Under the pieces are notes generated by a model. The model made no database searches. It saw only the letters and a program-made list of their open reading frames with translations, and was not told the origin of the DNA. A stretch of DNA of 64,000 nt from Podarcis cretensis (taxonomy: Eukaryota). The stretch spans positions 44,640,001 through 44,704,000 of the forward strand of contig OX638150.1 in the NCBI GenBank assembly GCA_951804945.1, in the 5' to 3' direction. The position numbers and the translations under genes are program-made. Of this stretch, positions 562 to 47,500 are shown one piece after another (position 1 is the stretch's first letter; every line of letters starts with the position of its first letter).

Positions 562-23716
<23,155 letters not shown>

Positions 23717-24067
23717 TTATGACTGCAAACATCACCAAACTAAGAAGCAAAACTACATGTTGTACACATCTGAGAGCACCTTCATTTGCAATCAAAATTC
23801 AGGTAACCTAGGTAATCAGCCAATGCTTGCTTATATTTGTACAAGCTAGATGGCAAATTGGTATTTGAGGCCCACAAAAGACAGGATTCATTTAGATCCA
23901 TAACTCTGTGAGGTGGGCAAGATGGAGAGACAGTGATTTGCACAAACATCATAGATGGAGTGATTTCCCATGTACCAGAAAAACTTGTCCACTATACAAT
24001 ATTGCACCTGGACTTCACATGCATAAGTTGCTATACTTCTCCACAAGCACAAATGTGACCGCTTAAG

Positions 24068-24387
24068 CAGTGTTAGAAACTGATATATTATGGCAGCTTA
24101 AACCTAGGATATGGGCGCAAAAATGGAATGTCTGGGCACACTTTTTATAACAATACAAAGCTGAAAATAAATGAACTGCAGCTAAAATATTTCACATGGT
24201 CTGATCCTCCAGTCTTCAGAGAGTAGCTGGAAGTGGGGAAGCAGAAAAAGGTCTTCCTTTCCTTCCACTCTGAAGTTTTAATCTGAAACCTTAGGCACAG
24301 TACTGCACCCAGTGCTTAGCAACTGCTTACACTAATGAAATTCCCTGTCGCAAAAGGCGCCTAGAACAATGGGAGTTTTGAACACTG
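24068..24387. mobile_element. hAT MITE (CAGTGTT family)
   Basis: CAGTGTTAGAAACT...AGTTTTGAACACTG, TSD CGCTTAAG/TGCTTAAG; homologous to 49446-49882. Confidence 0.8.
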
Positions 24388-25579
24388 TGCTTAAGACAAT
24401 ATAAATGAAAACATCTAAAAATAAGTTTTACCAAAAAAGATATGCAACAGAGCAAGGTCCTTAGAAAGTGCTAGAAAACCCATTTTTGGCAGCATAGTCA
24501 AGATCTATGTATGACTCATCAGAGAGCATCCATAGAACATGGGAGGAACTTGCTCAAGGCTCTCCCCTATGGCAATATATAGTAGACAGGTTTCACTGAA
24601 ATAAATGAAAGATATTATACCTAAAGATAGCAAAGAATGTTGATGTGAGGGATGACTTTGTTTGATATTAGTAATCACCCATGTATCATACTACAGTATA
24701 TAATGCCTAGTTGTTACCCATTTGTTGCATGCAATTCTGACAACTTCCGGCAATGTTCTGCTTCTAAGACATATTTTCTAAGGTCTAAATATGCTATTTT
24801 GTATCAAGCAAAATGTTTTTCCTCATATAGATCACCTATTATTGTTTTGATTTCCACATGAAATGTAACTGCACAGCTTCCACAAGCATCCACTTAATAA
24901 GGCCTCTGACACAACACTGCACAATCCAATACCTATAACTGTGCGTTTGTGACTCTTCAAAATGTATTAGAGGTTGAGTGCTCCACATCTATTACACTCA
25001 AGTGTGAGAGTACTCACCTCCCTTTAAAAAAATCCAGTTTGATACCCAGAAACTACCCGCTCATACAAACAAATCATTTTGTAAGCTTTTCACTCCCCTC
25101 TATTCCAATTTTGATTTTTGAAGGAGTGAACAGTTATGATCAACAAGCAGGGCTATTTTGCTTCCATTACATTGGGACTGGACATACTCTTAATACTTCA
25201 GAATGAGGGCATGAAAGAGGACCGTGCAAAGACTCCACATAGCTGGGGAGACACGTGCTTACAGCAAGGAAATGGAGTACTGTACAAGGTATCAGGCGAG
25301 AGCCAACAAGAGCCGAGCCAAAATGCGGGACTCTCCAGCACATCTATTCCAATTCCAGATTTTAACCTTCTCTTCCGTCATCTCAGAGATGTAAATATTA
25401 GAGGTGACAGATCAACCAACAGTTTCTAATCACCAAACGGAAGGCCTCCCCACCCCCCGCCCATGCTTAAGAGGCTGTGTGCTTTTAAGTACCAGCTGCC
25501 TTCTGGGTGGGGACGAAACGTATAGTGGGAGATGGGTGGTTGATGGATGGTTTGAGCTTTCTAGTCGCTTTTAGAAACA

Positions 25580-26860
25580 AGGCGCTGGACTGGAGGGTCC
25601 GCCGGGGCTCTTTCTGTTTAAGCGTGTGCCGGGCGAACAGTTCTTCGGCGAGGCTCTCCCGGCTCCCGCCTTGGGCTCTGCAGCACCACCTCCCACACAG
25701 AGGAAGCGTGAGAAGCGCAGCTGCCCAGGGCCCCGCTGACCACCGCGGAAGCCCTCACGCCCCTCCCTCAAAGCCATGTTGGGCCGGAGCAGCCCAGCAG
25801 CTTAGCCGGCAACGTCTCGCCTCAATCAGATCAGGCCCGGCCAACTCGGCCCCCCCCCCGCCCGCCTCGCCGCCCACGACCGGGCCGTTTCAGATTCCGC
25901 CTCACTCCCGCCCTGCCTCCTCAGCCGCTGGGCGACCTAACCCCCGCCAGCCAGCCAGCCGCCCGCCCAAGCCCGGCTCCTTGAAGGCTTCGCCTTCGCG
26001 AAATCCCTGCCTAGGCCGAAGCCGGGGGAGCCTCGCGCCATCCCCTCACACGCCCGCTCACGGCGCGCCCCAACCACCGAGCTTCCCACGCGCGCCCAGG
26101 GAACCCCGGCGCTGTACCTGCCCGGTTCCCGCGTGCCCAGGTTCAGGCCGCGGCTTCGGCGCCGAAGGAGGGAAGAAGAAGGTGGGGGCGGCAAGACGAA
26201 CGCGACACGCGGGCGATGAGCCGGGCCGGCCGCCGTCTCTGCCGCTCACGTGACTAAGACCAATAGGGGAAAAAGGAAAGAAAAAGGGGAGGAGCAGAGG
26301 ACCCGCTCGCGCACGTCTATAGACGAGGGCAAAGCAAGCACATCACGTGGCTCGGGAGAAAGGGCGGTAGCCACGCCCTCTCCTCCCTCCGTCCACTAGT
26401 CCGGATGGAAGCGCGGCGCTTTGAGGCAGGTGGCTGACGTCATGTCGTGCAACCTAACTTGGCCGCTGATGAAGCGCTACAAAGCCAGACGGCGGGAGGC
26501 TTGACTCTGTCGCCCAGCTGCACGTTGTCACCCCGAAGAGATTTCGTTTCGCTTGTTTTTAAAGTTTTTCTTCCGGTGCAAACTTCCGTTGGCTGGGGGA
26601 AAAAACTAAGAGCTTCGCGTCTACCTAAAAACGCAAGCAAACAGTTCTTTTTGCAAGAGCCACCGGGCGCCTTTCTGTGCTCAGTGTAGCAGGCGGTGTC
26701 ACCGAAGGGAAAAAGGAGTTCAAGCGGCCGTTGGGCTAGGGAGGCTGTCCCCGCCCACGTGGCCGGGCTGGCGCGTCTAGCCTGACCCGGACTCCGAGCC
26801 GGGCCGGGTGGCGCCGCCTTTTGTCGGTATAAGACACGGAGTCTCGTGGATGCATATTTC
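25580..26860 (-). promoter_or_regulatory. CpG island / TNPO2 promoter with putative non-coding first exon (donor CAG|GTACAG at 26118/26117)
   Basis: High GC and CpG density; E-boxes CACGTG (26247, 26344, 26756), CCAAT 26260, CRE TGACGTCA 26435-26442, ETS CTTCCG x2 at ~26570-26590. Confidence 0.75.
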
Positions 26861-28022: not shown

Positions 28023-28829
28023 TATATAGATACATTAAAACCCAGAGGAAAAATACATTAAATACTTCCCACCTACTTTTAAAAGGCCACAGATGGTCAA
28101 AGGCCAAAGGTTATGCTACTCCCATAGTCTGCTCTGGAAAACCCACCAGAGCAGATTTCGAGAGCACATGACTGGATGGGGGAAGAGTTGGAGAGGATGG
28201 GAAGTCTATATGAATGAACAGCAGTGTTGGATACAACTTATGATGAACATTACAGGAAACTCAAGGGCTCATAGTAAAAATTCACTGTCATATAAGTAGC
28301 ATTTTCATATCCCGCTTTTCCTCCCAAGCACTCAAGGTGATAGATACGGTTCTCTACCCCCCCCCCCCGCATTTAATCCTCACAGCAATCCTGTATGATA
28401 GAGTAGGCAGAAAGGCAGTGTGTTGCCCAGGTTCACCCAGTGGGCTTCGCGGGGAGGGGGCGTTGAACCCTGGTCTCCTAATCCGGAACAAATCAATGCA
28501 CCAAGCAGGATTTAGACAGTTTAAACTTTACACGTAATATTGAAGTAAGATTCTTCTGGTTCAGATGTGATCCTCAGCCCGAGCACTCAAGAACAACTCG
28601 GTTGGTTGGTCTACCTTTTTATGCTATTTATTTCAGACATAATGTAGATCGCAACCGAAACATGAAAATTAGTAATTAGATGAATAGTTATGGACTTAAA
28701 CTCTGCTGCGCATAGAAATGTTCAGATTTAATTAAAGCTACGCTGTAATACCGTTTGAAGGTGCTTCTTTTGTTTATCGCTGCCTATCGGAATGCCAGTT
28801 TACCTTTCCGTCTATTTTCCGCTGCTACG

Positions 28830-29400
28830 CCCTATCCCTCCGCGGTCGGGTTGCTTCACACTGCGCAAGCGCGGAGATCCAGTCTTTAGAACTACATTTC
28901 CCGATAAGACTTGCGACACGCCGCTCCTCCCCTGCGCCCCCCTCCCATTCCGGAGCTGGGGGAGGGAGGTTGCCCGGGCCGGACCCGGCAGCGGCCCCGA
29001 GCGGGCGGGCTCGGGCGAGCATGGGGGGCTGCCTTTCCTCGCAGGCGGCCGATGACCTGTCGCTGCTCAACGACTCTACCGGAGACGGGGCGAGCCTTGG
29101 GCCTGGGGATCCGTCTCCACCGCCCATCCCTGTCCCGCCGCCCCCCTACCAGGTAGCGGGTCGGGGGTTGCGGGGCGGAGGGCGAAAGGGGGGCTGTGGG
29201 GCGGGTTCCCCCAGGCCTCGCCGACTGTAGTGCTGGGCGTCGGGGCCAGCCCTGGGTAGCCTACGGGGTTCTGCTACGCAAGGGAGTAGGAAGCCGACAT
29301 ATGGGGCGAGGAAATTCGGCTGGCATTTTGGGGGTGGGCAGGGGTCGGGTATTGGCTCTGGCTTCCGGGTTCTTGGGGTAAGTAGGGCGGAGTGAGCTGG
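28830..29400 (+). promoter_or_regulatory. CpG island promoter of the RNF11-like gene
   Basis: CpG-rich; ZNF143/SBS-like ACTACATTTCCCGA at 28891; NRF1-like TGCGCAAGCGC at 28862. Confidence 0.7.
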
Positions 29401-32400
29401 AACAGTAGCTATAGAAAGAAACTGGGATAACAGATTAGAGTGGAGACCCCCGACCTCATCCAGGTATGCTAAGGAGACACAAGAATGGGGCTTGATGCCC
29501 TCTCGCCCTACCTGGAGAGTTACCTGGAGAGTGGATGTTACTGGGGTGAGTTAAGCCCAGTATTGACTTGGGAGTGGATGTACAACGTTGAGCAGGAGAC
29601 AGAACAGTGTCAAGCACAGAAAGATAATCGATATTTTTGCATTGGCATTAGTATTGCCCTTTAACCTTTGGACTGTGGTGTGTGAGTCTGAGGTCATGGG
29701 TCAAGGTTCTCTCAAAAAGCTATGGAAACATGAGTTGTGTGAATAGGGCAGGGGACATGGTGGGCAATCATGGTGAAGAACTCAAAGTCATGAGTCAGTT
29801 ATAGAAGATAAGAACTGGGGAGCAGAAATAGTGTGGTGTGATTTATAAGAATGAGCAGTGGATCTGAAGTGAGGAGACCCAAATTCATGTTGAGCTGTGA
29901 ACTGCTCCACATGATGAAACATACAACTTATAATGTAGAATGTAAATGTGACAGGACCTGCCTTGAAGTAAAGGCATCATACAGGCATGCTTGTCAGTGG
30001 GCCAAGATTGACTGCAGCCCCACAAATTGTATGTTTGGTGGGAAACCTGGGTTAATGTGGGAAATGGCTCTCAATGAGCAGTACAGTACTGAACATAACC
30101 AATCAATTACTAAATAGGCTTGGTTGAAAATTAATGTTTAGACTCCAGGCTATCTTATGCTAGGTGTGCTTTCAACCATCCTGACAAATCTTTAGAAGAT
30201 GTGGTAACCAGGAATGCAGAGTCAGATTTCATAACACCATCATTTCTTTCTGCAGAAAAATGACACAGAACACGCATGATTGTTATGTCTTGTCCATTTC
30301 AACAGTTGTCTTGTGTGCCTTTGATATTTGCTTTCCCATGTCTGAGGTTTATTGTGGAGCAGCTGCATGTTTCTCTTGCATTTTTGCAAGCTGCTATACC
30401 TGCCGAGTAGCATTCTCCAATGTGGGGACAGACAGTCTATGGAAGAAGAATTAGGAAAGACTGAGGGAAATTCTGGTGGTTTCTTCCTGTTTGAAACCTG
30501 GGGAAGGTAAAGGCAGCACAAACTTACTGTATTTTTTGCTCTATAAGACTCACTTTTTCCCTCCTAAAAAGTAAGGGGAAATGCATGTGCGTCTTATGGA
30601 GCGAATGCAGGCTGCGCAGCTATCCCAGAAGCCAGAACAGCAAGAGGGATTGCTGCTTTCGCTGCGCAGCGATCCCTCTTGCTGTTCTGGCTTCTGAGAT
30701 TCAGAATATTTTTTTTCTTGTTTTCCTCCTCCAAAAACTAGGTGCGTCTTGTGGTCTGGTGCGTCTTATAGAGCAAAAAATACGGTAGTTTAAAAGGGTG
30801 GCTAGAACAAAACATCAGGATTCCATATCTCAAAGTACCAGAGTGGATCTTGGGAAGATGGCTGTTAGAATGTGTGGGGAATTTATTCACATTAATTTCA
30901 GAAACTCTTTGGGTTACCTCCTGAAACATATTGTGATTAGACAAATGAAAAACCTGCAGATTAGACAAATTAGATTAGACAAATGAAAAACCTGCTTCAC
31001 ACACACAAAAATCCATACACTATTATATTATAGATTGCTTTCTAAAGGAAATAAACAAATGATAAATACACTAAGGAACTTCCATATTTAAGAAGAGTGT
31101 ACTACAGATGATTGGATAATGTTTACTAACAACACAGAATGGATGTTACCATCATGTTCTGCTTCTGAACTTCTTTAGCTTTTCACTGGCCACTTTTAGA
31201 CAAAATGCTGAATTAGGTAGACTATTGATTTCAGCCAGCGCTGCAATTCTTATGTCCCAAATCTTGATTGGGGCAATGTTCCTAGCAATTATCATCTGCT
31301 TTAGAGACCAGTAATTTAATGCATCTCTATGGGGGCAACTTGCAATTTGCTAAAATGTCTTCATTTTAAATGCAGTGGCTTGGGAGCAAGGGCATTCTGC
31401 TGCATGAAAGCAATTGGGGGCATGGGCATTCCAAGCTAACAGTATATTATTGGACCACTGTCTCACAATAAATGTTTGTCTAGATACATCCCAAAATAGA
31501 GGAGCAAGAGATGGATCTGATTGTTTTATGGTGAGTTAATTAGTTCTGCAAGGATCCCAACACCAGAGTCCAGAGCAGACAGAAGGGCTTCTTATGCATC
31601 TGCAAATGATGAACTTGCTGTTTAGTTAGCAATTGCTGGCTCACTTCCCTGTAAAAACTTAAAATGCCAATCAGAAACATGACAGCACCATGATTTAGCC
31701 CATCTGGTGTACTACAGAGTAGATATTATCTGACAGTTTCAGCTTGCGTATGCCGAAAAGTTAAGTATGTAAATATAGGAGCCTGCAGGGTTATTTACTT
31801 TTGCCACCTTTGTGGAAATATGTTGAATAACTAGCTCTACTGGAGTAATATAGGGGTCTGTGAAGAAAGAATAGTTGACGGCTGAATTGCTGTATGTTGA
31901 GTGTGGGTTTATCTCCATTTGATTACTGGCTGGTTACAAGAGTAGCAATCACTCAGCCACTCTGTCTTCTGAATTTCTAGGAACATGCACCAATTCCAGT
32001 ATATCACCCAACGCCCAGCCAGGCACGTCTTGCCACACAACTAACAGAAGAGGAGCAGATCCGTATAGCTCAGAGGATTGGGCTGATTCAACATCTTCCC
32101 AAAGGAATATTTGATCCAGGCACAGAGCCATCGGAAAAGAAAATCAAAGAGTATGTTTTCCATGTGCAATGTTTTGTGTTTATCCAGTTCACTGAGACTG
32201 TTTGCTAGTAGATGCATATATAGACTTCATATCCCACTGACAGTGTGTAGCAATTCCCTTTCCAAAATGGAATATGGGTATATTGTACTGTCCAATTCTT
32301 GGTTTTAAAAAATGATGACTTTAGGCATAAAAAGGTTGACTATCCCTGGTCTGATTCCTGGTCAATCACTACCAGTTCAGACCGCATTATTTTTCATTTA

Positions 32401-33797
32401 TTTGCTCGTTCTCTCAGTTTTGGAGAAGTTCTTTTAGAGCTTTTCACAATCCCTTTATGATTTAACCACCCTGAACAACTTATTGTCATGAGCAAACTCG
32501 GCCACCTAACTGCTCTAGCTTGTTTTGTTTTTTTTATTAAAAAAAAGTACAGGTCCCAATTCTTGTGGAACTCCACTTTCTGTCTGCTTTAGTAAGGTTT
32601 GTTCTTCTATATGCTTGGTCATTTTATCCTTAACAATGCTCTCTACCAGTTTTTTCAGGACAGGTGTTAAGCTAACCAGCCTGTAATTTCTAGGATTCCC
32701 CCTGGATCCCATTTTAAAAATTAGTGTCACATTGGCTACTTTCGTCTTCTGGTGTGGATGTTGATCTTTGGGACAATATACAGTGGTACTTCAGGTTACA
32801 GATGCTTCAGGTTACAGACTCCGCTAACCCAGAAATAATACCTTGGGTTAAGAACTTTGCTTCAGAATAAGAAGAGAAATTGTGTGGTGGAGGGAGGCCC
32901 AATTAGCTAAAGTGGTACCTCAGGTTAAGAACAGTTTCAGGTTAAGAATGGACCTCTGGAACTAATTAAGTTCTTAACCTGAGGTACCACTGTGCATATT
33001 TTTATTAAGTCAGAAACTCCATATTTGAGTTGAGATCTCTTGAGTAGATTCAGACCCTAATTTGCCTCAATTCCTCAGACTTCATACAAAAGTTAATTTA
33101 GGCAAAAGTTAGTTCTCCACCATCATTTTTCCAACAAAGCAATATTTTTCCCAACTATATAACACAAGGTGAAATTAACATGCATCATATTTAAAGTGAA
33201 ATATTTTCTCTTCAGCCTCTGCATCCATCTAACCTTAAAGAGTTATTTGCTATGAAGACAGTGTGTATTTAAAAACATCCAATAAAATGTGACTATACAG
33301 CAGCAACTTTCAGCTGGGGTAATGTCCATGTTTTGGAATAGATGTAGGTGGAGGGTCATCCTTGAACCTTGGAAGTCAAAGCAAACTTATTTAAGATAGA
33401 GCGCTCTGTGTGTAACAGGCTTGCGTGCTTTCCAGCACCACAACCAGTATTGGACACTGTTAAGAATGGAATAGTGAGACTAGATGACTTGCCAGCTAGT
33501 AGTTCTTTACTCGGATACCTGAACTTACCATGTGGTGGCAAATTGGGCAGAAAATGCACGAGAGATGTTTTAGAAGCCATCTTAGTGTCTTAATAACATT
33601 TCCTTTTCTCTCTGCCTGATTTCAGGTGTGTGATCTGCATGCTGGATTTTGTATACGGAGACCCCATTCGGTTCTTGCCCTGCCTGCACATCTACCACGT
33701 TCACTGCATTGACGACTGGCTGATGCGATCATTCACCTGCCCTTCTTGCATGGAGCCAGTTGACGCTGCTCTTCTGTCCTCCTACGAGACTAACTGA
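29021..33797 (+). CDS. RING finger protein 11-like (RNF11 paralog), RING-H2 E3 ligase, 157 aa, 3 exons
   Basis: Exons 29021-29152, 31981-32150, 33626-33797 (GT-AG, phases 0 and 2). MGGCLSSQAADDLSLL...PPPPYQ|EHAPIPVYHPTPSQARLATQLTEEEQIRIAQRIGLIQHLPKG...|CVICMLDFVYGDPIRFLPCLHIYHVHCIDDWLMRSFTCPSCMEPVDAALLSSYETN*. Exons 2-3 are nearly identical to recalled RNF11; the N-terminus is divergent. AATAAA at 35049-35054. Confidence 0.93.
30527..30785. mobile_element. Tc1/mariner (Tc2/pogo-like) MITE, 259 bp, with internal hairpin
   Basis: TIR C(T/C)GTATTTTTTGCTCTATAAGAC / GTCTTATAGAGCAAAAAATACGG, TA TSD. Confidence 0.85.
32390..32775 (-). mobile_element. CR1 LINE RT fragments
   Basis: ORF 32515-32730 TLIFKMGSRGNPRNYRLVSLTPVLKKLVESIVKD resembles CR1 PIFKKG..DPGNYRPVSLTS, followed by SGVPQ. 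Confidence 0.75.
32781..32992. mobile_element. Tigger-like MITE
   Basis: CAGTGGTACTTCAGGTTA...TAACCTGAGGTACCACTG. Confidence 0.8.
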
Positions 33798-35798
33798 GGT
33801 GGCTCGGTGCCCTGCTCTTGTTAATGCTTCCAGGCTCTGGCTGTGTGGGGGGCTGGGATGTGGCACACTCTTTTATTTGCACACTTCTGGGATACACCAA
33901 AGATCCTATGGCAGAGAATCTGATCCCAGGCCTTGATGACAACACAGAACCATTCTAGCTTGGCTGGCTGTGCTAAAGGCTGACTTGTGCCATATTTGAG
34001 AATTGTAACCAGAGTAGGTGGAGACTGGGGGTGAAATGCCAAAGCAAGAATTGTCCTTTCACTCCACCCACAAATGCTGTTTTGTTCTTTTCTTTTTAAG
34101 AAGATCAAGATTGTTCCTTAGGACTATTCTTACCCACATACCTGTTTAAATCCCCACTGAGTTATCAAGTACAGGTCTGGGGTGTTACATGGGAGGGGAC
34201 TGCAACTCTTTGACCGAAAAGAGAGAGTTGTTTAAAGCTGGCACTGGTTGCAAAGATCTTGTAATTTCAAATCCAGAAAAGGAGTTTTAGCATTGTCACA
34301 TCAACTCTGGTTGGTTTGTGGCAGAATCTGGAGTTTTGAGAAGTGTTGTTGTTTTTTTTTTTAAAAAAAAGCATTTCTCCGTTACCCCACAAATGCTTCT
34401 TTTAACCAGGTGGGAAACAAGCGTCTTTAAAAGCTTGGCCACTATTGAAATCTTACCCAGTAGCACTTGTGCTACAATGCACAAAACAAGTCTAAGGGGT
34501 TTGTCTCAGTTCTTTGTGGGGGCAATTTGGAGCAGTGACCTTGGCGGGGACTTGAGCTTGATCTCTGTAGTTGGAGTCGGGGTGCTTCTGTTTAAAAGGT
34601 TCATGTTTCAACTAAGAGTGAACGATACATACTTTTCACTTCCTCTCTTCTGCTTGTAAAGATTTTAAGATGCTTTTAAGGTGAAGGAGACAGAAGAGTT
34701 ATTTGTTAAATAACAGCTTTTTAGTAAGTTAGTGATGAAGTACAAAAGCCTCCTCTACAGATGGTGGGTTAAGGCATTCAAGTGCACTATTGTAAAGGGT
34801 AAAGAAACTGTTTGTTTGCCCAATGTTTACTCTGTTTGCCTTACACAAAATGAAGACTCTTGTCCCATAAGAAACTGCTAGCGATTAATGCCATGCGGCA
34901 AGCCCACTGTTTGGAAAGGCTTCCCTTAGTCATGCTGTTTATTGCCTTGCAAGTGGAGAGGCGTGAAAGTGCTTTTCTGATTATGCATTGTCCTTAACAA
35001 GGATCTAGCACTTGAAAGTAAAACTGATGTGTGTTGCATTCAAATGGAAATAAAATAGATTGCATATAATCCCTTGTAGAAATACGTATTTGGGCAAAGC
35101 GGACTGCTCATATCCCTTTTCTTCCATCACTCTTTCCAGCTAAGATGAATGCCAGCAGCACTTGACAAGGATAATTCTTCTACTGGTCAATCATCAGTGT
35201 TTCTTTTCTGTACTACCTTTTGTCTTTTGCAAAAGATGGACTTGTTTAGTCCATTTTTGATCAGGCATAATTTTAGAGTTGCAGGGTCCATGCTGAGACT
35301 TGGCCCTTCCTCTTTCCTTATTGTCCCAGGAAAGGAATAGCAGCAGCTGCTTTCTAAGCTACATCACAAACCACTTTTCAATAGCAGGATCCCAAGGGTG
35401 GTGAGCAGAGAAGCAGCTGCAGCCCAGTTCCCTAGAGAGCTTTCTTGCCTTGAAGGAACAGCAACAACTAATAAGGAGCAGTGTAGTTGTTGTCTTAAAG
35501 GGATGACAGGAGATGGGAAATGGAGTAGAGCAGTAGATAAGATTCAAACTATGTTCCTGAAGGCTGCTTCTCCTGCAGTCACACCAGGGCCTGATTTGTA
35601 GCTGGTTTGCTACAAGTTTCATATTTACCTTTGCAACTGTCATCTTAAGTATAAAGTGAGAAATACTTTCAACGCATGCTTGCACCAAATAGCAGGGGAG
35701 AGAGGAATGTAGAAGTAGAAAAAAAAATAATGGCAGGGATGACATTTTTAAAAACTCATATTGTCTCCCCAAAGGTGGAGAGGCATCTCTAATTCAAT

Positions 35799-36127
35799 GG
35801 TAAAGGTAAAGGGACCCCTGACCGTAAAGTCCAGTTGCGAACGACTCTGGGGTTGCAGCGCTCATCTCGCTTTACTGGCCAAGGGAGCTGGCATTTATCC
35901 ACAGGCAGCTTCCGGGTCATGTGGCCAGCATGACTAAGCTGCTTCTAGCAAACCAGAGCAGCGCACAGAAACGCCGTTTACCTTCCCACTGGAGCAGTAC
36001 CTATTTGCACTTTGACATGCTTTCGAACTGCTAGGTTGGCAGGAGCTGGGACCGAGCAACGGGAGCTCATCCCATTGTGGGGATTTGAACCGCCGACCTT
36101 CTGATTGGCAGGCCCTAGGCTCTGTGG
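35799..36127 (-). mobile_element. Sauria SINE
   Basis: Reverse-complement homolog of 27683-28022, with (GGTAAA)n tail on plus. Confidence 0.85.
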
Positions 36128-37425
36128 TACCATCCAGTGGTACAGTTAAGTAATTTTAGATTCTGAACTTAGTGGTCTTATGCAGGCTCCACTCTTTAGA
36201 TGGTAAAGCACATTACTTACCTATTTTTAAATGTGGCCAGCCAGCTGTACTACATTTGGGTGGATTCCTGCCCCAAAATCCTCCTGGGGCAGCACCACTA
36301 CACTAATGAAAAGTATCAAGTACTGGTGAAGACCTCTGCCCAAATCTCTTAGGAACCACCATCAGTCAGACAGTACTGAACAACACATGCTACTAGCCTG
36401 ACTGTATAAGGCAGCTTCATATGTAAAGATGGTTGACTGTGGAGTGAGCAACAGCACCCTGAGTTCCATTTGGCCTGATACACAAACTAGCATCAATCAA
36501 AGGGATGTCTAATGCACATCTGAAGACTGGCTGGAGTTGAAACAAAGTTGTTCTGCTGGCAACTGGGTATAGGGCCTCAAGCAACTGAAAAGAGGTAAGT
36601 GATCAAAGTTCTGGCTGGGGCAATATAACCAGGCCAGAACAACATCTAGCAGAAATGATACTTTCAAATAAATTTTCACAGTGAACAAAAATATACTGTA
36701 TGGGTTATCTATCATTGGCTTTTGAAAAGAACAAGCAGCAACCCCTAGAAATAAAGATGAATATATCAAGCAACTGTTGTAACTGCAATGAATGTGTTTT
36801 CATACCCCTGCTATTATTAGCTCATTCTTTAACCACATATTTTCCAGAATAGTGAATGAACAGTCTATGAATCTTGCCCTCTGGAAATGTTCCCTAGCAA
36901 AGTGCAATTGCACCTTCACCAGATGCATAAAGTTATCCTAAGCTAAAAAATATGTTTATATCCTGTACTTACTGTGAAGAGTTCAAGGAGTGTACATAGT
37001 TTGCCTTTCCCCCATTTTATCCTTGTAGCCCGTTAAGCTGAAAGAAAGTGATTGGCCCATGGTCATCCAATGAGCTTCATGGTCAAATGGGGATTTGAAT
37101 GTTCATCTTCCAAGCCCCAGGTCCAGCACTCTCAACCACTACATCCCATTGGATTCCACATGTGATAGGAGAGGGAGAACTATTAGCAGTGTAGTTAGTC
37201 TAGTTTGTGCCTTTTAGAATTTCCTCCTATGTTAAAACTTAAATACATAAAAATAATTAGTGAATATTCACAAAGCAGTGATGAGTCACTAATGATTTTA
37301 CATATATTAACAAATTTTTTAATGTCTCTTGCATTTTATATCCTCCTAACCCCACTACCAATGTCTGTAAATAAAATAAATAAAATTTAAAAGATGAGAT
37401 AACACTTCTTGCATATGATCAAGTA

Positions 37426-37684
37426 CCGTATTTTTTGCTCTATAAGACTCACTTTTTCCTTCCTAAAAAGTAAGGGGAAATGTGTGTGCGTCTTATGGAG
37501 CGAATGCAGGCTGCGCAGCTATCCCAGAAGCCAGAACAGCAAGAGGGATTGCTGCTTTCACTGCACAGTGATCCCTCTTGCTGTTCTGGCTTCTGAGATT
37601 CAAAATATTTTTTTTCTTGTTTTCCTCCTCCAAAAACTAGGTGCGTCTTGTGGTCTGGTGCGTCTTATAGAGCGAAAAATACGG
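37426..37684. mobile_element. Tc2/pogo-like MITE, near-identical to 30527-30785
   Basis: CCGTATTTTTTGCTCTATAAGAC...GTCTTATAGAGCGAAAAATACGG, TA TSD. Confidence 0.85.
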
Positions 37685-37686
37685 TA

Positions 37687-37790
37687 CTTTAGTCCACAAA
37701 TGCACAGACCGCTAATATATTTAAGTCTTCAAGGTGCCACATATTTACTGTTTTTGCTGCAACAGAGTAGCATGATTACCTCTGAAAGGT
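37687..37790 (+). mobile_element. Decayed Penelope-like element terminal fragment
   Basis: TAGTCCACAAA...AAGTCTTCAAGGTGCCAC...TTTTGCTGCAACAGA...TACCTCTGAA resembles recalled squamate Penelope termini. Confidence 0.45.
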
Positions 37791-38052
37791 ACTTACCCAG
37801 CCATAGGCAACTCCCCATTTGCACAGGGGTTGCGTTCTTGGCATTTGCACTCTTCAGAGAAGTGCGCATAAGCCCACCCTGTCCCCATTCCACCCTCCAC
37901 TGGGTCCAAAACAACCCATCTGCTGGCCGTCACTTTTCAATTGACTACACGCAAAATGGTCACTACCTGTATAAGTAAAAATACCTTTTATCATAAAAAA
38001 GAAATAGAAAGGAAATAAGACAAAGCTAGCGAATCAATATTCACAACAGAAT

Positions 38053-40177: not shown

Positions 40178-43100
40178 TTATTTCACCAAAGGTCGGGTTT
40201 TATCATCATCACTGCACTGGTGGGCTTTGTATTTTTTCACTTCAGCCATATATTTGGCCCATGCATCACCTTTACTTGTCAAAACCTACAAACAAAACAG
40301 GAGAGGCAAAAATGAAATGTTACATATATCAAATTATTTTATTCAGAAGCATACCATATACAGAAAACATTAACTCTCAAAAAACAATGGCATAAACCTA
40401 ACCATCTAACTAGGAGTCTGTGGGTTGTATTGTACTAGGGAGCCCCAGGTTCAAATTCTTGCTCAGCTATAAACCTCACAGTATGACACGGGGGTAGTCA
40501 ACATCTCTTTAGTCTAAGCTATCACATAATATTGTGAAGACAAAAGGAAGATAACCCCAGGTACTGGATCTGCCATTATCTCATTGGAATTAAATAGGCA
40601 ATGCTGGTGTAACAGACATTCCCATCTTCTCCTTTCCAGCCCTCACAAGGACCCTCTGCAGCAGATTTTGAAGGTGCATGCGAGAAGGATGGAAGTCCTA
40701 TTATGCAAGAGGAACTCTGTACATGCATTTGAAACAACCCTGTTTACAGAAATGAAATAGACAGGGAAGCTTAACACTTAACTAGGAAATAACAGTTCTT
40801 CATTTCACTTGACAAGCACCTTTCCTACTAAGGAAGAACACAAGCTTCCAGCTTCATTGCTGTTATCACAACTGAAGCAGGAACAAGAAATAAAGTACTC
40901 TTCTGCTGCTCCTGTAGACCTATATAGCAGTTTTTCATTGAAGGGCTGACACTGCCGTTATTGCAAAGTTCATATTCTTTCTGTGTGTTGTCTCTTTCTC
41001 TCTCCCTCCCCTCACATACACAAATTAAAGCAACCTGCCCCTGAGATTCTAGCAGAGGCCCCAAAAATCATTGTTCAGTTCTCCTACAAATTTTCTCACA
41101 CTCCAAAGATGGCCATTTCCCTAAAGATGGAAGGTCAACATCAGTGCCAAACTTAGATAGCATGAGGGAGAAGAATATTAGCTTCAACTTCCATTCCTGC
41201 TGAAATGGAAGCAAAAGCATTGCTGCCCCATGGGCTGTCAAACTGACATAAATGAGGTTCATGCTAACTTACCTCATCCTCTGTCTTTTGTTTCTTGGCT
41301 ACCACTCCTGTCTTCAGGGCTAGCTTGCTGCCCCCTCTCCGCTTGCCCACCTGGGTGAAGGGACAGAAGACTGCAACCGTTATACGAGCCTGGGAGCTGC
41401 AAGGGGAATGTTGCCCACTATATAACGGTATAGGGAGTCCTTCAATTAGATCATCTTAGCTCGCCATCACACCTGTCAGTCAGTACAGAGCTGTCGAGCG
41501 TTACCTACACCGTTGTGCTAGGAGGGTAAAAGGGCACCTTAGCAGTGTTCACCAATACATCTGTACAGATTAGCCCAAACATTAAAAGACACGTTTTATA
41601 AAAAAGTGAAGTATTCTGAATGCTTTCCAGGCTCAATGTCCATTAGAAAATAGGATCTTCCACTCACATTCCCCTAAAACATCACAACATACATGAAACT
41701 GTTTGATTTCCTAATAATTACAAGGACAATCAAGTTGGCAGAGTCAGTCTTATTCCTGTCTAGGGAGGGGCTGTGTGCTACTGTCATTCTATAAATCTGT
41801 ATAATCTCCATAAAACAAAAAATGGATTTCTAAGAGCAGCTCGAGGCTTAAAATATGAAATGTCAGCTTTAATTTTGAAAAAAACAAGCTTGAAAACAGA
41901 TGGGGTCCTTCTGCTAAAAACTAAGGAAGGAGAGCAGGGTTTCAATGTCCACTATCAGCACCCTGCTCACATCATGAAATTCCTGCAGTACATGCCCCTT
42001 ATGCTCTTCCTAGTCATAGCGCCAGTAATGCCATATGCCCAAACGTATGCTCCATCTCCAAGAATCCTCTATCTAGAGACTCCAGGTTTCATAAGACTGA
42101 AAGTGAAAAAATACTAATTTTCTTACTCGTAGGCTGCAACTCCATACACAATACCCTGGTATTAATTCCCACTGAACTCAACAGCTTATTTTTTAGTAAA
42201 CACAGAGCACCTTGTTGTTATTCTATTCTGAGTAGCCTCCCCTTTTCTATAACAGGCTATGTTATTAATGCTGAACCAATAGAGAATACATTGCATTCTT
42301 CTCTATCCAGCTGCGAACCAAATAGCAGCTTACTTCAGAATTATCACACCAATACGGATGTTGAACGGATTCCATTCTGTTGTAAGCATGATACTATCTA
42401 TGCAGAAAAACTTCCATATGCTAGACAAAAGCCCCATTTACTTGCAACAGCTGTTTAAAGCAGGGGAAACTCCTAGTTTGCTTTAAGAAAAAGGGCCTAG
42501 TTTATCTTAATACACATCAGTTCCTTTGTTTTCATATAATGCCTGTATCAGTCTCTATCAGATGGTTCTCCAAAACACAGCTAAATCAAAGCATTATGTT
42601 GTGGTATTTTACTTGCAGTTCACAGGATGGCCTTCTAGATCTACTACTTCCAATTTGAATCTATATTACACACATCAGGATTGACACTTTTAGTTTCTCA
42701 GAAGGAGGCAGAAAAGAGAATGTTTATCCAATTATTTATTTTTCACCTTGCACTTTTACCTGTCCCAAGTTAAGATTCAGTAGGTTTTTAAAAAAAAAAA
42801 TGTCATAATTTTGTTGGATTATTTTGGCTGTGGCTACTGAATGGCTTTGATTTTTAGAAATGCACAGAAGCAGGTAGTTCTGTCATGGGGCAGGATTATT
42901 AAGAACCCCAAAAGGCAAGCTTGGAACTTGAAGTTCACCCACTTGGAAATAAGGCACACTGAAATTAATGAGTTTTTGAGCAAATATGTTTATGGTTAGA
43001 GAATAAAAAGGATTTTGATGTTTACTTTATAGACTGAGATTAGGACTAGTTAAGTAAAAATAGCCTCCCAACATTTATTGGGGACAGCACTTACAGAAGT

Positions 43101-43918
43101 ATTCCAGAACTGCCTACTTTCAAGTCCACAATCAATATGAACAAACCCCAGTAAAACATTAACTTGCACAGCAATGAGAGATGTCGACTATAGTATGCAA
43201 CCACTGTCAACAGACATTTTAAAAAATTGCTTGCTGCATACACCTATGCTATATATTACCGGGGCGAGGGATATCAGCACTAAATATTCATGCCCATCGG
43301 ACTTAAATTCATAACGTGAATTAAAGTGAGCTTTGAAAACCTTTGTCGAGAGCTCGGAGGAGGAAGAGAATTTAACAGTGCTCCTGGTAACATTATTCCG
43401 CTACCGTGACAGAAATACTGGGGGGAGGGGAAGAGAGAACCTTTTACAGGGGTGAGGAAGTGCTTCACCCGTTGAACTTCTGCCTGCCAAGCACCTATTA
43501 AGGGCACACGCGACCATGTCAGGAAAGGAGATGAAAACGAGCAGGCAGAAGGCGCCAGCCAGCGCCTCGGTCCTTTGGGGTCTGGGGAGGGCGGAGGCAG
43601 AAAGCGAAGAGGAGTAAGCCAAGGGAAAGGGGAGGAGGGGGTGTCAGGGCCCGGATCCCTTACGAAGCTGAGGGCGCTCCCGCTCCGCTTCTTTTCCGGC
43701 GGCTCCTGTTCCCCGGGCGGCTCCGGCCGAGACTCGGTCTCTCTCTGCTTTTCGGCCCCTGCTTTCCCCGCTCCCGGTCCGCTCCTCCCTCCCGCGGCGG
43801 CGGCCTCTTCCATGCGCCGCTTAAAGAGCTCTAGGAAGGAGCCGTCGTTGGCGAACACGTTCACTCCGCCCGGCCCGGCCGCCTCGGAGCCTGGGCCCCT
43901 GCCTTGCGCCGCCGCCAT
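40178..43918 (-). CDS. TRIR: Telomerase RNA component-interacting RNase (C19orf43), 146 aa, 3 exons
   Basis: Exons 43918-43664, 41350-41273, 40285-40178. MAAAQG...GVNVFANDGSFLELFKRRME...SALSF|VGKRRGGSKLALKTGVVAKKQKTEDE|VLTSKGDAWAKYMAEVKKYKAHQCSDDDKTRPLVK* matches recalled TRIR; head-to-head with GET3 as in human. Confidence 0.95.
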
Positions 43919-44531: not shown

Positions 44532-47500
44532 ATGGCGGCGGCGGCATCTGGGTTGGCGACTGAGGCGGATGAGTTCGAGGACGCACCTGACGTGGAGCCG
44601 CTGGAGCCGACACTGAGCAACATCATCGAGCAGCGGAGCCTGAAATGGATTTTCGTCGGAGGGAAGGGTGGCGTTGGCAAGACCACCTGCAGGTGAGTTG
44701 GTCGGGGAGATGTCGTTGGGAGGGATGACAGACATTGCTGCCTCCGCCTTTCTCTCTCCTTGGCAGCTGCTGCTGTGCCTTTTCAGGAGCTGTGTGACAG
44801 GCAGAAACCCAGCAAGCGCAGCTTTCATATCGCCGAACCTTTGCTGGCAAAAGCTCTACCTGTTGAACGTCCGCATCTCATTAAGCTATGGAGAATAGTG
44901 TCTTATTAGGCAAGCGAATTGTATACACCTTCATGCCACTGTACGTAAATATCATGGGATTTGGGGCACCCTGCTTCAGATGCAAGACTGGATGAAACTA
45001 AGTAGAAGCATAGGGGTTGGGTGCCTTCCTTTTTCAGATTCATATTTTGACAGTCATTTATGCCTTCTTAATCTCAAGGCTAAGTATTTGAAGCTGCTTT
45101 TATGTGTGATTGTCCTTGATGACCGAAAGCTTCATTTAGAGCTGAATGCATTTTCAGACAAATTCTGAAGAATGTAATTGTTCTGGTACTTGGACTGAGA
45201 ACCCTCACTGCCTTCCAGTCATAGCTTTATCTTGTAAACCCCCAAATGGCTTGGATTAACTTAATTTGTAGCTTGCCTACTTCCTTGTGCAACTCTGCCA
45301 ACAATACCTTCTTGATTATATTAGCCTTGATGTTGTGGAATAACCTTGCAGTGGTAGGTTTCCCATTGTGCAATGCCTTTTCTTCATAAAGATTTTTAAA
45401 ATTGTAGATCAGAACATAGAACACAAGTATTAGAGGCTATTAAATTTTGGCTGGTGTGTGTGTGTGTGTTGGATTTTGATGTCTAGGGTTAAACCTTTTA
45501 AAGTGGGCTTTCGATATATTCTAGATTTACTTTGTGGTGACTCATAAGAAACTCATTAATATATTATTTGGCCTCGTTTTTTGCGGGGGGGTGGTGGTGG
45601 AGGTAACCTGTCTTGAAAGAGAGGGGTATCACAGGTTAAATAGCTGAAGCTGTCATTTACTCAGGAGTGAGCTGTTTTGCTAAGCTAATGTGCATATGAT
45701 TTGGCTGCTTCTGAGTAGCTGCTTGTCTGTGACAAGTAAGCACCTCCATAGAGGAGCAAAGTTGGAAGTCTTTGGATCATAATCTCTTAGGGTAGACAAA
45801 TCCAAACAGACCTATTAAGACTGTGATAGCTGAAGAGCTTATGTTCTATGTTTGTATGTATTTCCTTTTGTGATGTTAATAACTGCACATTGCTTTACTT
45901 CCTGAATCTAGCTGCAGCCTGGCTGTGCAGCTGTCCAAAGTGCGGGAGAGTGTCCTCATCATCTCCACCGATCCTGCTCATAACATATCAGATGCTTTCG
46001 ACCAGAAATTTTCAAAAGTCCCCACCAAAGTAAAGGGCTATGATAACCTTTTTGCCATGGTGAGTGTTCCTCTGAAGGGACTGGGTAGTATTGAGCAAAA
46101 AATATGGTTCTTATTACATATAGGAAAAGATCAGGCAGGGGTGAAAACATTCTTTTTTCTGACCTTGCTCTTTCACACTGAATAGATTATGATATGTAGC
46201 AATAAGGCAAGTAAACCAACTGAATTTTTCCTCCAAAATTTCTGTGTCCTGGACTGTGAGGAGATGATGGTATATTTTGTTTAACTGGTTTCTCTTCACT
46301 GTATTTTAAGAGATGTGACTAATGTAGTGGTTTGTAACCTCGAGAATTTATCTGTAACTTAGACTTGCATTCTATAAAATTATGAATGAAATAAATTCCA
46401 TCAGCAGCAATATACATAAACAGCTAGTGTTTCATGGGCAAGTATCAAACTTACAGCAGCCTTTAGTAGAAACAGTTGAAAAAATATTTTCTATCAAATA
46501 ACTTGCTATCAGCATAACATGTGACAATACATTGACACATACAAATAAATGCTCCCAAAATAAGACCCTCTGCATATGACATTTTGTATCTCTGTAAGTT
46601 GCAGGTTAGCACTAAGTCTGTATGGGAAGTAATGTCCACAGGAATTCACACTGGGCTATGAGAACACCCTAATTATTTGTTTCTTTTCAAACCAACATTT
46701 ATCATAATCTTCAGGGAAGACAAATGTCAGGGAAATCTCCCCCACTTTTTTTCTTTAAAGGATTTTATATGCAATTACTATGCAGTTGTACCTCTGGTTG
46801 TGAAAGGGATCCGTTCCGGAGGCCCATTCACAACATGAAAAGAATGCAACCCGCAGCGGCGCGTCTGTGCGTGCGCGGGTTGCAATTCGCCGCTTCTGCG
46901 CATGCATGTGACGTCATTTTGCGTGTCTGCTCATGCGCGAGCGGCAAAACCCGGAAGTAAACCTTTTTGGTACTTCTGCGTTGCCGCGTGACGTAACCCG
47001 AAAGAACATAACATGAAGCGGAAGTAACATGAGGTATGACTATATTGTATCACTTGGCCAACAATTTTTCTTTTCAATTTCCCTGTCTCAAACTCAACAA
47101 CATGGTTGTCAACTGACACCAGTATTTCATTAACTATTCCTTTTTAAAAAAGTTTTTATTTAAATCAAGTTTATAATTCAATAATATACAGAAATAAAAA
47201 CATAATGAAAAAGCAGTAGAGTTAAATTAAACTTCAGTGTAAATACACAAATAACAACAACAACAATTTGAGTCATTTCAGTCACAATCGGTGAAGAAAA
47301 CATTAAAAAAAAATATTTTTATTAAACAATTTCAACAAAACAAATTATCAACCAAATGATCAACTATATTCTCCCCCCCCCTTTTTATTCCCCCATCCCT
47401 CCCTCTCCCCCCCCAGACTTCCCTCAGCTCCCCTCTCTGGTTTGTTTGCACATTCCTCTTCTCTGCATGTTAAAAATTGTACATATCATTACCTTGTCTA

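Follow-up and report, generated by a model that had tools for sequence, protein, structure and literature searches.

An expressed RNF11-type gene of Podarcis cretensis, very probably orthologous to fish rnf11a, with a probable loss in placental mammals

Introduction

Which gene occupies the interval between TNPO2 and TRIR in the lizard Podarcis cretensis, where we take the human locus to hold none? The stretch considered here, called the window, comprises 64,000 nucleotides (assembly GCA_951804945.1, contig OX638150.1, positions 44,640,001 to 44,704,000 of the forward strand; coordinates below count from its first letter). A sequence-only reading had proposed that it carries an intact RNF11 paralogue, an ancient whole-genome-duplication copy (ohnologue) retained in reptiles and lost at least in the human lineage. 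Sequence comparison places the encoded protein as a paralogue, not an orthologue, of mammalian RNF11, and indicates a gene kept by most jawed vertebrates and not specific to reptiles. We hold it very probable that the lizard gene is the orthologue of fish rnf11a and Xenopus rnf11.2 and, as parts of the same reading, that it would have arisen in a genome duplication, been lost in placental mammals and kept an RNF11-like function.

RNF11 is defined, in the review PMC7697665, by Gly2 myristoylation, Cys4 palmitoylation, overlapping DxxxLL/DxxLL motifs, PPPY, a RING-H2 domain and a C-terminal DAALL; there it is described mainly as an adaptor and inhibitor of HECT ligases that binds UBC13 tightly, and the review never mentions paralogues, zebrafish or Xenopus. 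Our literature search, with coverage that excludes most subscription journals, returned no paper describing this paralogue or the paralogy. The available part of a preprint names a rat 'Rnf11l' without detail, the matches in PMC5764321 proved to be RNF111 and not RNF11, and the supplements of PMC10208646 name none of RNF11, TNPO2 or TRIR, a check that is uninformative.

The window gene and a separate RNF11 in the same genome

The lizard gene is real, expressed and already annotated in databases. Its coding sequence, read from the window, comprises three plus-strand exons with GT-AG joints and an open frame of 157 amino acids. Exon 1 (29021-29152, 132 nt) encodes Gly2/Cys4, DDLSLL, a proline linker and PPPY and ends at a GT donor; exon 2 (31981-32150, 170 nt) holds the conserved middle region and the paralogue-diagnostic linker; and exon 3 (33626-33797, 172 nt) supplies the RING-H2, the C-terminal DAALL and the stop. 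The complete three-exon frame claimed earlier is borne out by RNA at both joints: raw reads from three runs span the exon 1-2 joint 66, 69 and 19 times and the exon 2-3 joint 59, 57 and 8 times.

Elsewhere in the genome, exon 2 matches just one further locus (two in all), and RNF11-grade similarity to exon 3 is found in 2 of 15 genome matches. This second locus, on contig C6 at 57.536-57.562 Mb, shares the intron phases of the window gene, and its exons measure 123, 170 and 172 nt; close by are a TTC39 gene, at 18 kb, and an EH-domain gene, at about 90 kb, a neighbourhood that we take to be the human RNF11-TTC39A-EPS15 arrangement. The C6 protein is identical to mouse RNF11 at 151 of 154 positions and the window protein at 121 of 154, while the two lizard proteins share 122 of 154 (82% identity in exon 2, 93% in exon 3), and of the 113 codons of exons 2-3, 56 differ synonymously between them and 14 with a change of amino acid. 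Grouping with amniote RNF11 and flanked by TTC39 and EH-domain genes, the C6 copy is the true RNF11. The presence of a separate RNF11 beside its expected neighbours, a check that the earlier proposal had called for, leaves that proposal standing, and its statement that the window gene is no retrocopy agrees with two conserved introns in the phases of C6 RNF11.

TTC39-family loci number four in this genome (C6:57.58, C7:47.87, C17:26.14 and C17:34.19 Mb); human has three TTC39 genes, one fewer.

Phylogeny and species range

Three protein searches gave the best 120 of 340, 889 and 1204 matches, respectively, and together with cluster look-ups supplied 340 proteins in all. These were typed as a (the type of the window protein) or b (that of mammalian RNF11) by a one-residue rule; it assigned two teleost 11a proteins (P0158, P0168) to the wrong type and could not class 10 of the 340, among them the lemming fragment P0080. 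Among the matches listed, a-type proteins occur in sharks, rays, a chimaera, bichirs, teleosts, coelacanth, frogs and a newt (P0226), and further in squamates, turtles, alligators, emu, kiwi, ostrich and nine marsupial species, under the database names rnf11a, rnf11.2 and RNF11-like. Retention in reptiles thus held, although the claim was too narrow, the gene being kept also in sharks, fish, amphibians, ratites and marsupials. Chimaera and sharks carry both types.

In a careful tree of 31 chosen proteins, the a-clade is supported at 99/97 with chondrichthyans basal, and holds the window protein, shark and fish rnf11a, Xenopus rnf11.2 and the RNF11-like proteins of turtles, alligator, ratites and marsupials. 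Within it, zebrafish rnf11a (NP_957315, P0297) is identical to the window protein at 128 of 146 positions, Xenopus tropicalis rnf11.2 (NP_001006833, P0125) at 127 of 146 and a lacertid record (P0191) at 157 of 157; proteins named 'RING finger protein 11a' in shark and coelacanth and 'RNF11-like' in squamates fall in the same clade. A tree constrained to unite the squamate copies with amniote RNF11 was rejected by the approximately unbiased (AU) test (p 5e-39), so the phylogenetic check against vertebrate RNF11, including rnf11a and rnf11b, came out in favour of the proposed paralogy; the same test did not reject b monophyly (p 0.28). With seven invertebrate-like outgroup sequences, lamprey and hagfish fall outside a plus b (80/88), and support is 98/91 for a and 78/64 for b. 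Mammalian RNF11 is the orthologue of fish rnf11b and of the C6 copy.

A second teleost group of b-type RNF11-like proteins (P0122, P0123, P0126 and relatives) was also seen; it is probably the real teleost-duplication partner of rnf11b.

Origin of the duplicate

Since both types occur in chondrichthyans, the tree places the duplication before the split of sharks and bony fish; it probably followed the cyclostome split. The contigs of the two lizard genes share further families. JUN-family genes lie on four contigs, namely C2 (113 kb from the window gene), C6 (3.6 Mb from RNF11), C17 and C18, and HOOK genes on three, C2 (67 kb from the window gene), C6 (4.0 Mb from RNF11) and C17. JUN and HOOK paralogues beside both loci, together with the tree, fit an origin in the jawed-vertebrate (gnathostome) genome duplication, and the window gene is therefore likely an ohnologue, as had been proposed. 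The TTC39, EH, DM and NFI/MH1 families flank C6 RNF11; genome searches gave no member of these near the window.

At C17:11.44 Mb (L038), an intronless, divergent fourth JUN-family open reading frame of 436 amino acids lies about 70 kb from the HOOK gene, a JUN-HOOK pairing also present on C2 and C6. Since human has three JUN genes, this C17 frame is likely another ohnologue lost in mammals.

Apparent loss in placental mammals

Absence from human draws on the protein searches, on gene order in the horse and on our assumption about the human locus. Among the 340 proteins examined (matches listed, 10 unclassed), we found no a-type of placentals, neognaths or monotremes, and no monotreme RNF11 protein of either type; a search with a profile made from the copies of marsupials, ratites, alligator, turtle and squamates likewise gave no placental a-type among the matches listed. 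In the part available of PMC12291906, an ordered horse gene list runs BEST2, ASNA1, TRIR, TNPO2, FBXW9, with nothing between TRIR and TNPO2; the list for this region seen in PMC9526059 is unordered. On these comparisons the gene was likely lost in placental mammals. The apparent neognath absence is unsafe because the region is under-represented in bird assemblies, where, according to the available part of PMC4290089, HOOK2 is listed as missing and TNPO2 is unplaced.

Such a distribution matches the pattern of 'elusive' ohnologues, of which the accessible part of Hara et al. 2018 (PMC5901865) counts 48 that occur in non-eutherian mammals or palaeognaths and are absent in eutherians and neognaths; these evolve faster than their own paralogues. 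RNF11 does not appear, by name or by five accessions, in Table S10 as available from that study, perhaps because the screen demanded absence in all sampled mammals including opossum.

Diverged RNF11-like proteins of a lemur (P0365) and an owl monkey (P0379) both have the b-type linker. P0365, from Prolemur simus, is 146 amino acids long and very diverged with RING spacing intact, and is possibly a fast-evolving primate retrocopy.

Motifs, predicted action and repeated loss of PPxY

Every motif that the sequence-only reading listed (Gly2/Cys4, DLSLL, PPxY and RING-H2) was found. Gly2 and Cys4 form a putative double-acylation site; the N-terminal DDLSLL contains overlapping DxxxLL and DxxLL motifs, and the C-terminal DAALL is also there; PPPY sits at the end of exon 1, upstream of the RING. 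The zf-RING_2 match (E 1.6e-13) scores 51.2 bits against the Pfam cut-off of 27.3, and the RING-H2 ligand set at the C-terminus is complete with the same spacing as in mouse RNF11. Exon phases, Gly2/Cys4, both di-leucine motifs, PPPY, RING-H2 spacing and a T135-equivalent site are common to the window protein and mammalian RNF11; the a-paralogue departs from the latter in its N-terminal arm, where Lys6 has no equivalent, in its pre-RING linker and in its faster evolution.

Two sequence differences stressed earlier turned out to be minor. HIYHVHC is present as described, but the second histidine of HVHC does not coordinate zinc, the two positions vary within the a-clade (VH, VN, VD, VG, ME), and we reject it as a functional RING change. 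The proline-expanded linker ahead of PPPY is indeed longer than in zebrafish, Xenopus, shark and coelacanth a-types, at 27 amino acids in the lizard against 16 in fish and frogs (range 16-27); from the sequences compared, we read it as an amniote and squamate elaboration.

With all RNF11 motifs intact, the lizard protein is likely a membrane-anchored adaptor for NEDD4-family ligases, and because every motif is kept, the same mode of action as RNF11 is the best inference. Its predicted lipid modifications are a myristate on Gly2 and a palmitate on Cys4, its acidic di-leucine motifs (AP-2, GGA) would sort it to Golgi and endosomes, and PPPY would bind the WW domains of NEDD4-family HECT ligases (ITCH, SMURF2, WWP1), PPxY-WW binding being a textbook pair. 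The RING-H2 would bind E2 enzymes, UBC13 among them, and by analogy with RNF11 the protein may tune receptor sorting and NF-kB/TGF-beta signalling. We infer every one of these biochemical steps, as we do the whole-genome-doubling origin and the placental loss.

One motif is not uniformly retained in the clade. Counted over a-type records with a full N-terminus, which are database gene models of related, non-independent species with the motif at an exon end, PPxY is kept in 22 of 23 squamates (the other has LPPY), 7 of 8 turtles, both crocodilians (2/2), all three ratites (3/3), 19 of 19 amphibians and 44 of 47 ray-finned fish, three medaka records being without it. It is kept in 2 of 9 marsupials (2 of 7 when two short dasyurid models are set aside) and in 1 of 12 chondrichthyans. 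Among b-type records, 77 of 80 keep it, and the exceptions are placental '-like' or hypothetical records. These gene models suggest that the a-paralogue repeatedly lost PPxY, in sharks, marsupials and medaka, a pattern that, like the history of the gene, appears undescribed. More tentatively, and with rather less than even confidence, we suggest that the a-paralogue amounts to a natural uncoupling experiment, in which PPxY was shed repeatedly while the acylation site and RING were kept; in the lineages without the motif the protein may work apart from NEDD4-family ligases, as a RING that is anchored to membranes and binds E2 enzymes, and the marsupial decay may mark a stage on the way to placental loss.

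Alternative explanations

Several points weigh against an ancient rnf11a orthologue of genome-duplication origin. Families common to both loci number two of the six tested (JUN and HOOK), supportive but thin, and synteny was read in this one lizard genome. The b-type is a poorly resolved polytomy, non-monophyletic in the 31-protein tree and with the modest outgroup value given above, and one long-branch invertebrate-like outgroup sequence was drawn into the a-clade. Large clusters were sampled at 15 members and searches at their best 120 matches, so a placental copy could be hidden, and the papers found contain nothing on the biochemistry or function of the a-paralogue. The thin sharing of neighbour families, together with the support of 80/88 at the node putting cyclostomes outside, lends something to an account with the same orthology and another origin, either a small-scale duplication in the jawed-vertebrate stem or the first genome doubling followed by cyclostome loss. 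We consider this improbable, given JUN on four contigs and HOOK on three, with the pairs linked and both RNF11 contigs among them, and introns conserved between the copies.

Marginally less probable again is that placentals (or neognaths) still possess the gene, either as a very diverged copy or as one that annotations or assemblies lack. The protein sets are the best 120 of larger match sets, the available part of PMC4290089 reports the region as badly represented in bird assemblies, and P0365 and P0379 attest to diverged primate RNF11-like proteins; these two nevertheless carry the b-type linker, the multi-lineage a-type profile gave no placental a-type among the matches listed, and ASNA1, TRIR and TNPO2 are adjacent in the horse list seen in PMC12291906. 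A translocated true RNF11, a reptile-specific duplicate or a retrocopy could appeal to the 122/154 identity with the C6 copy, but we give these next to no credence and reject all three on the separate RNF11 in its expected neighbourhood, the two conserved introns, the tree and the AU test (p 5e-39).

Transcription, 3' end and neighbouring genes

The CpG island and polyadenylation signal that had been assigned to the gene were both confirmed. The island (28750-29350) covers the promoter and exon 1, with GC 0.67 and a CpG observed/expected ratio of 0.83, against 0.19 over 29400-33600. A 3' untranslated region of about 1.27 kb (33798-35070, plus strand) has unbroken stranded coverage up to the bin ending at 35019, and coverage falls off at AATAAA (35049-35054, plus strand): in two stranded runs, depth is 50-62 in bin 34699-35019 and below 1 in the next. 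One assembled RNA contig extends past the signal, to 35723. In the two stranded runs first mates map almost all to the minus strand, so under the usual protocol the RNA is plus strand. In the first two RNA runs exon 3 begins with a synonymous substitution, and the coding differences among those listed in the read tables are synonymous in five of five cases. The RNA evidence comprises three raw runs and one contig set, at most four samples from three studies, from other individuals or a close relative.

Around the exon 1 ATG, position -3 is A and position +4 is G; upstream of 28921 there is next to no RNA coverage. An upstream ATG at 28792 (region 28792-29020) starts 76 extra N-terminal residues in lacertid records P0001, P0222 and P0224. 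Such an extension would abolish Gly2 myristoylation; we reject it for this genome, in which ATG 28792 lies in another reading frame and in a region almost free of RNA reads.

TNPO2 (9411-26300, minus strand; partly mapped, with ATG at 23632 and a 5' donor near 26118) stands head-to-head with the gene. This transportin is identified as TNPO2 because the human transportin-1 residues from which it departs are kept at a second locus, on C11, and because an intron hosts the box C/D small nucleolar RNA SNORD41 (9825-9895, minus strand). TRIR coding exons (40178-43918, minus strand) lie tail-to-tail with the gene, identified by a high-confidence atlas lead and by exon reading; the name depends partly on motifs typical of TRIR. 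TNPO2 is as first named, and TRIR probably so. Coding exon 1 of GET3/ASNA1 follows at 44532-44692 on the plus strand (E 1.4e-25 to the human ASNA1 chain).

Interspersed repeats in the introns and downstream (30526-30846, 32773-33093, 35662-36303 and 37267-37908) show very high unstranded read depth; two of the elements, at 30.5 kb and at 37.4 kb, belong to a single family.

Implications

As a gene lost in placentals, the a-paralogue would be one more case of a well-described pattern, and the surprise is moderate. RNF11 has been treated as a single, nearly invariant vertebrate gene, and most jawed vertebrates have two. Zebrafish rnf11a and Xenopus rnf11.2 are accordingly no orthologues of human RNF11, and the a/b names do not mirror the teleost duplication. 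Knock-outs in zebrafish and Xenopus may face a back-up gene that placentals apparently lack. The repeated loss of PPxY would provide natural variants for separating the RNF11 functions that depend on HECT binding from those for which the RING is enough.

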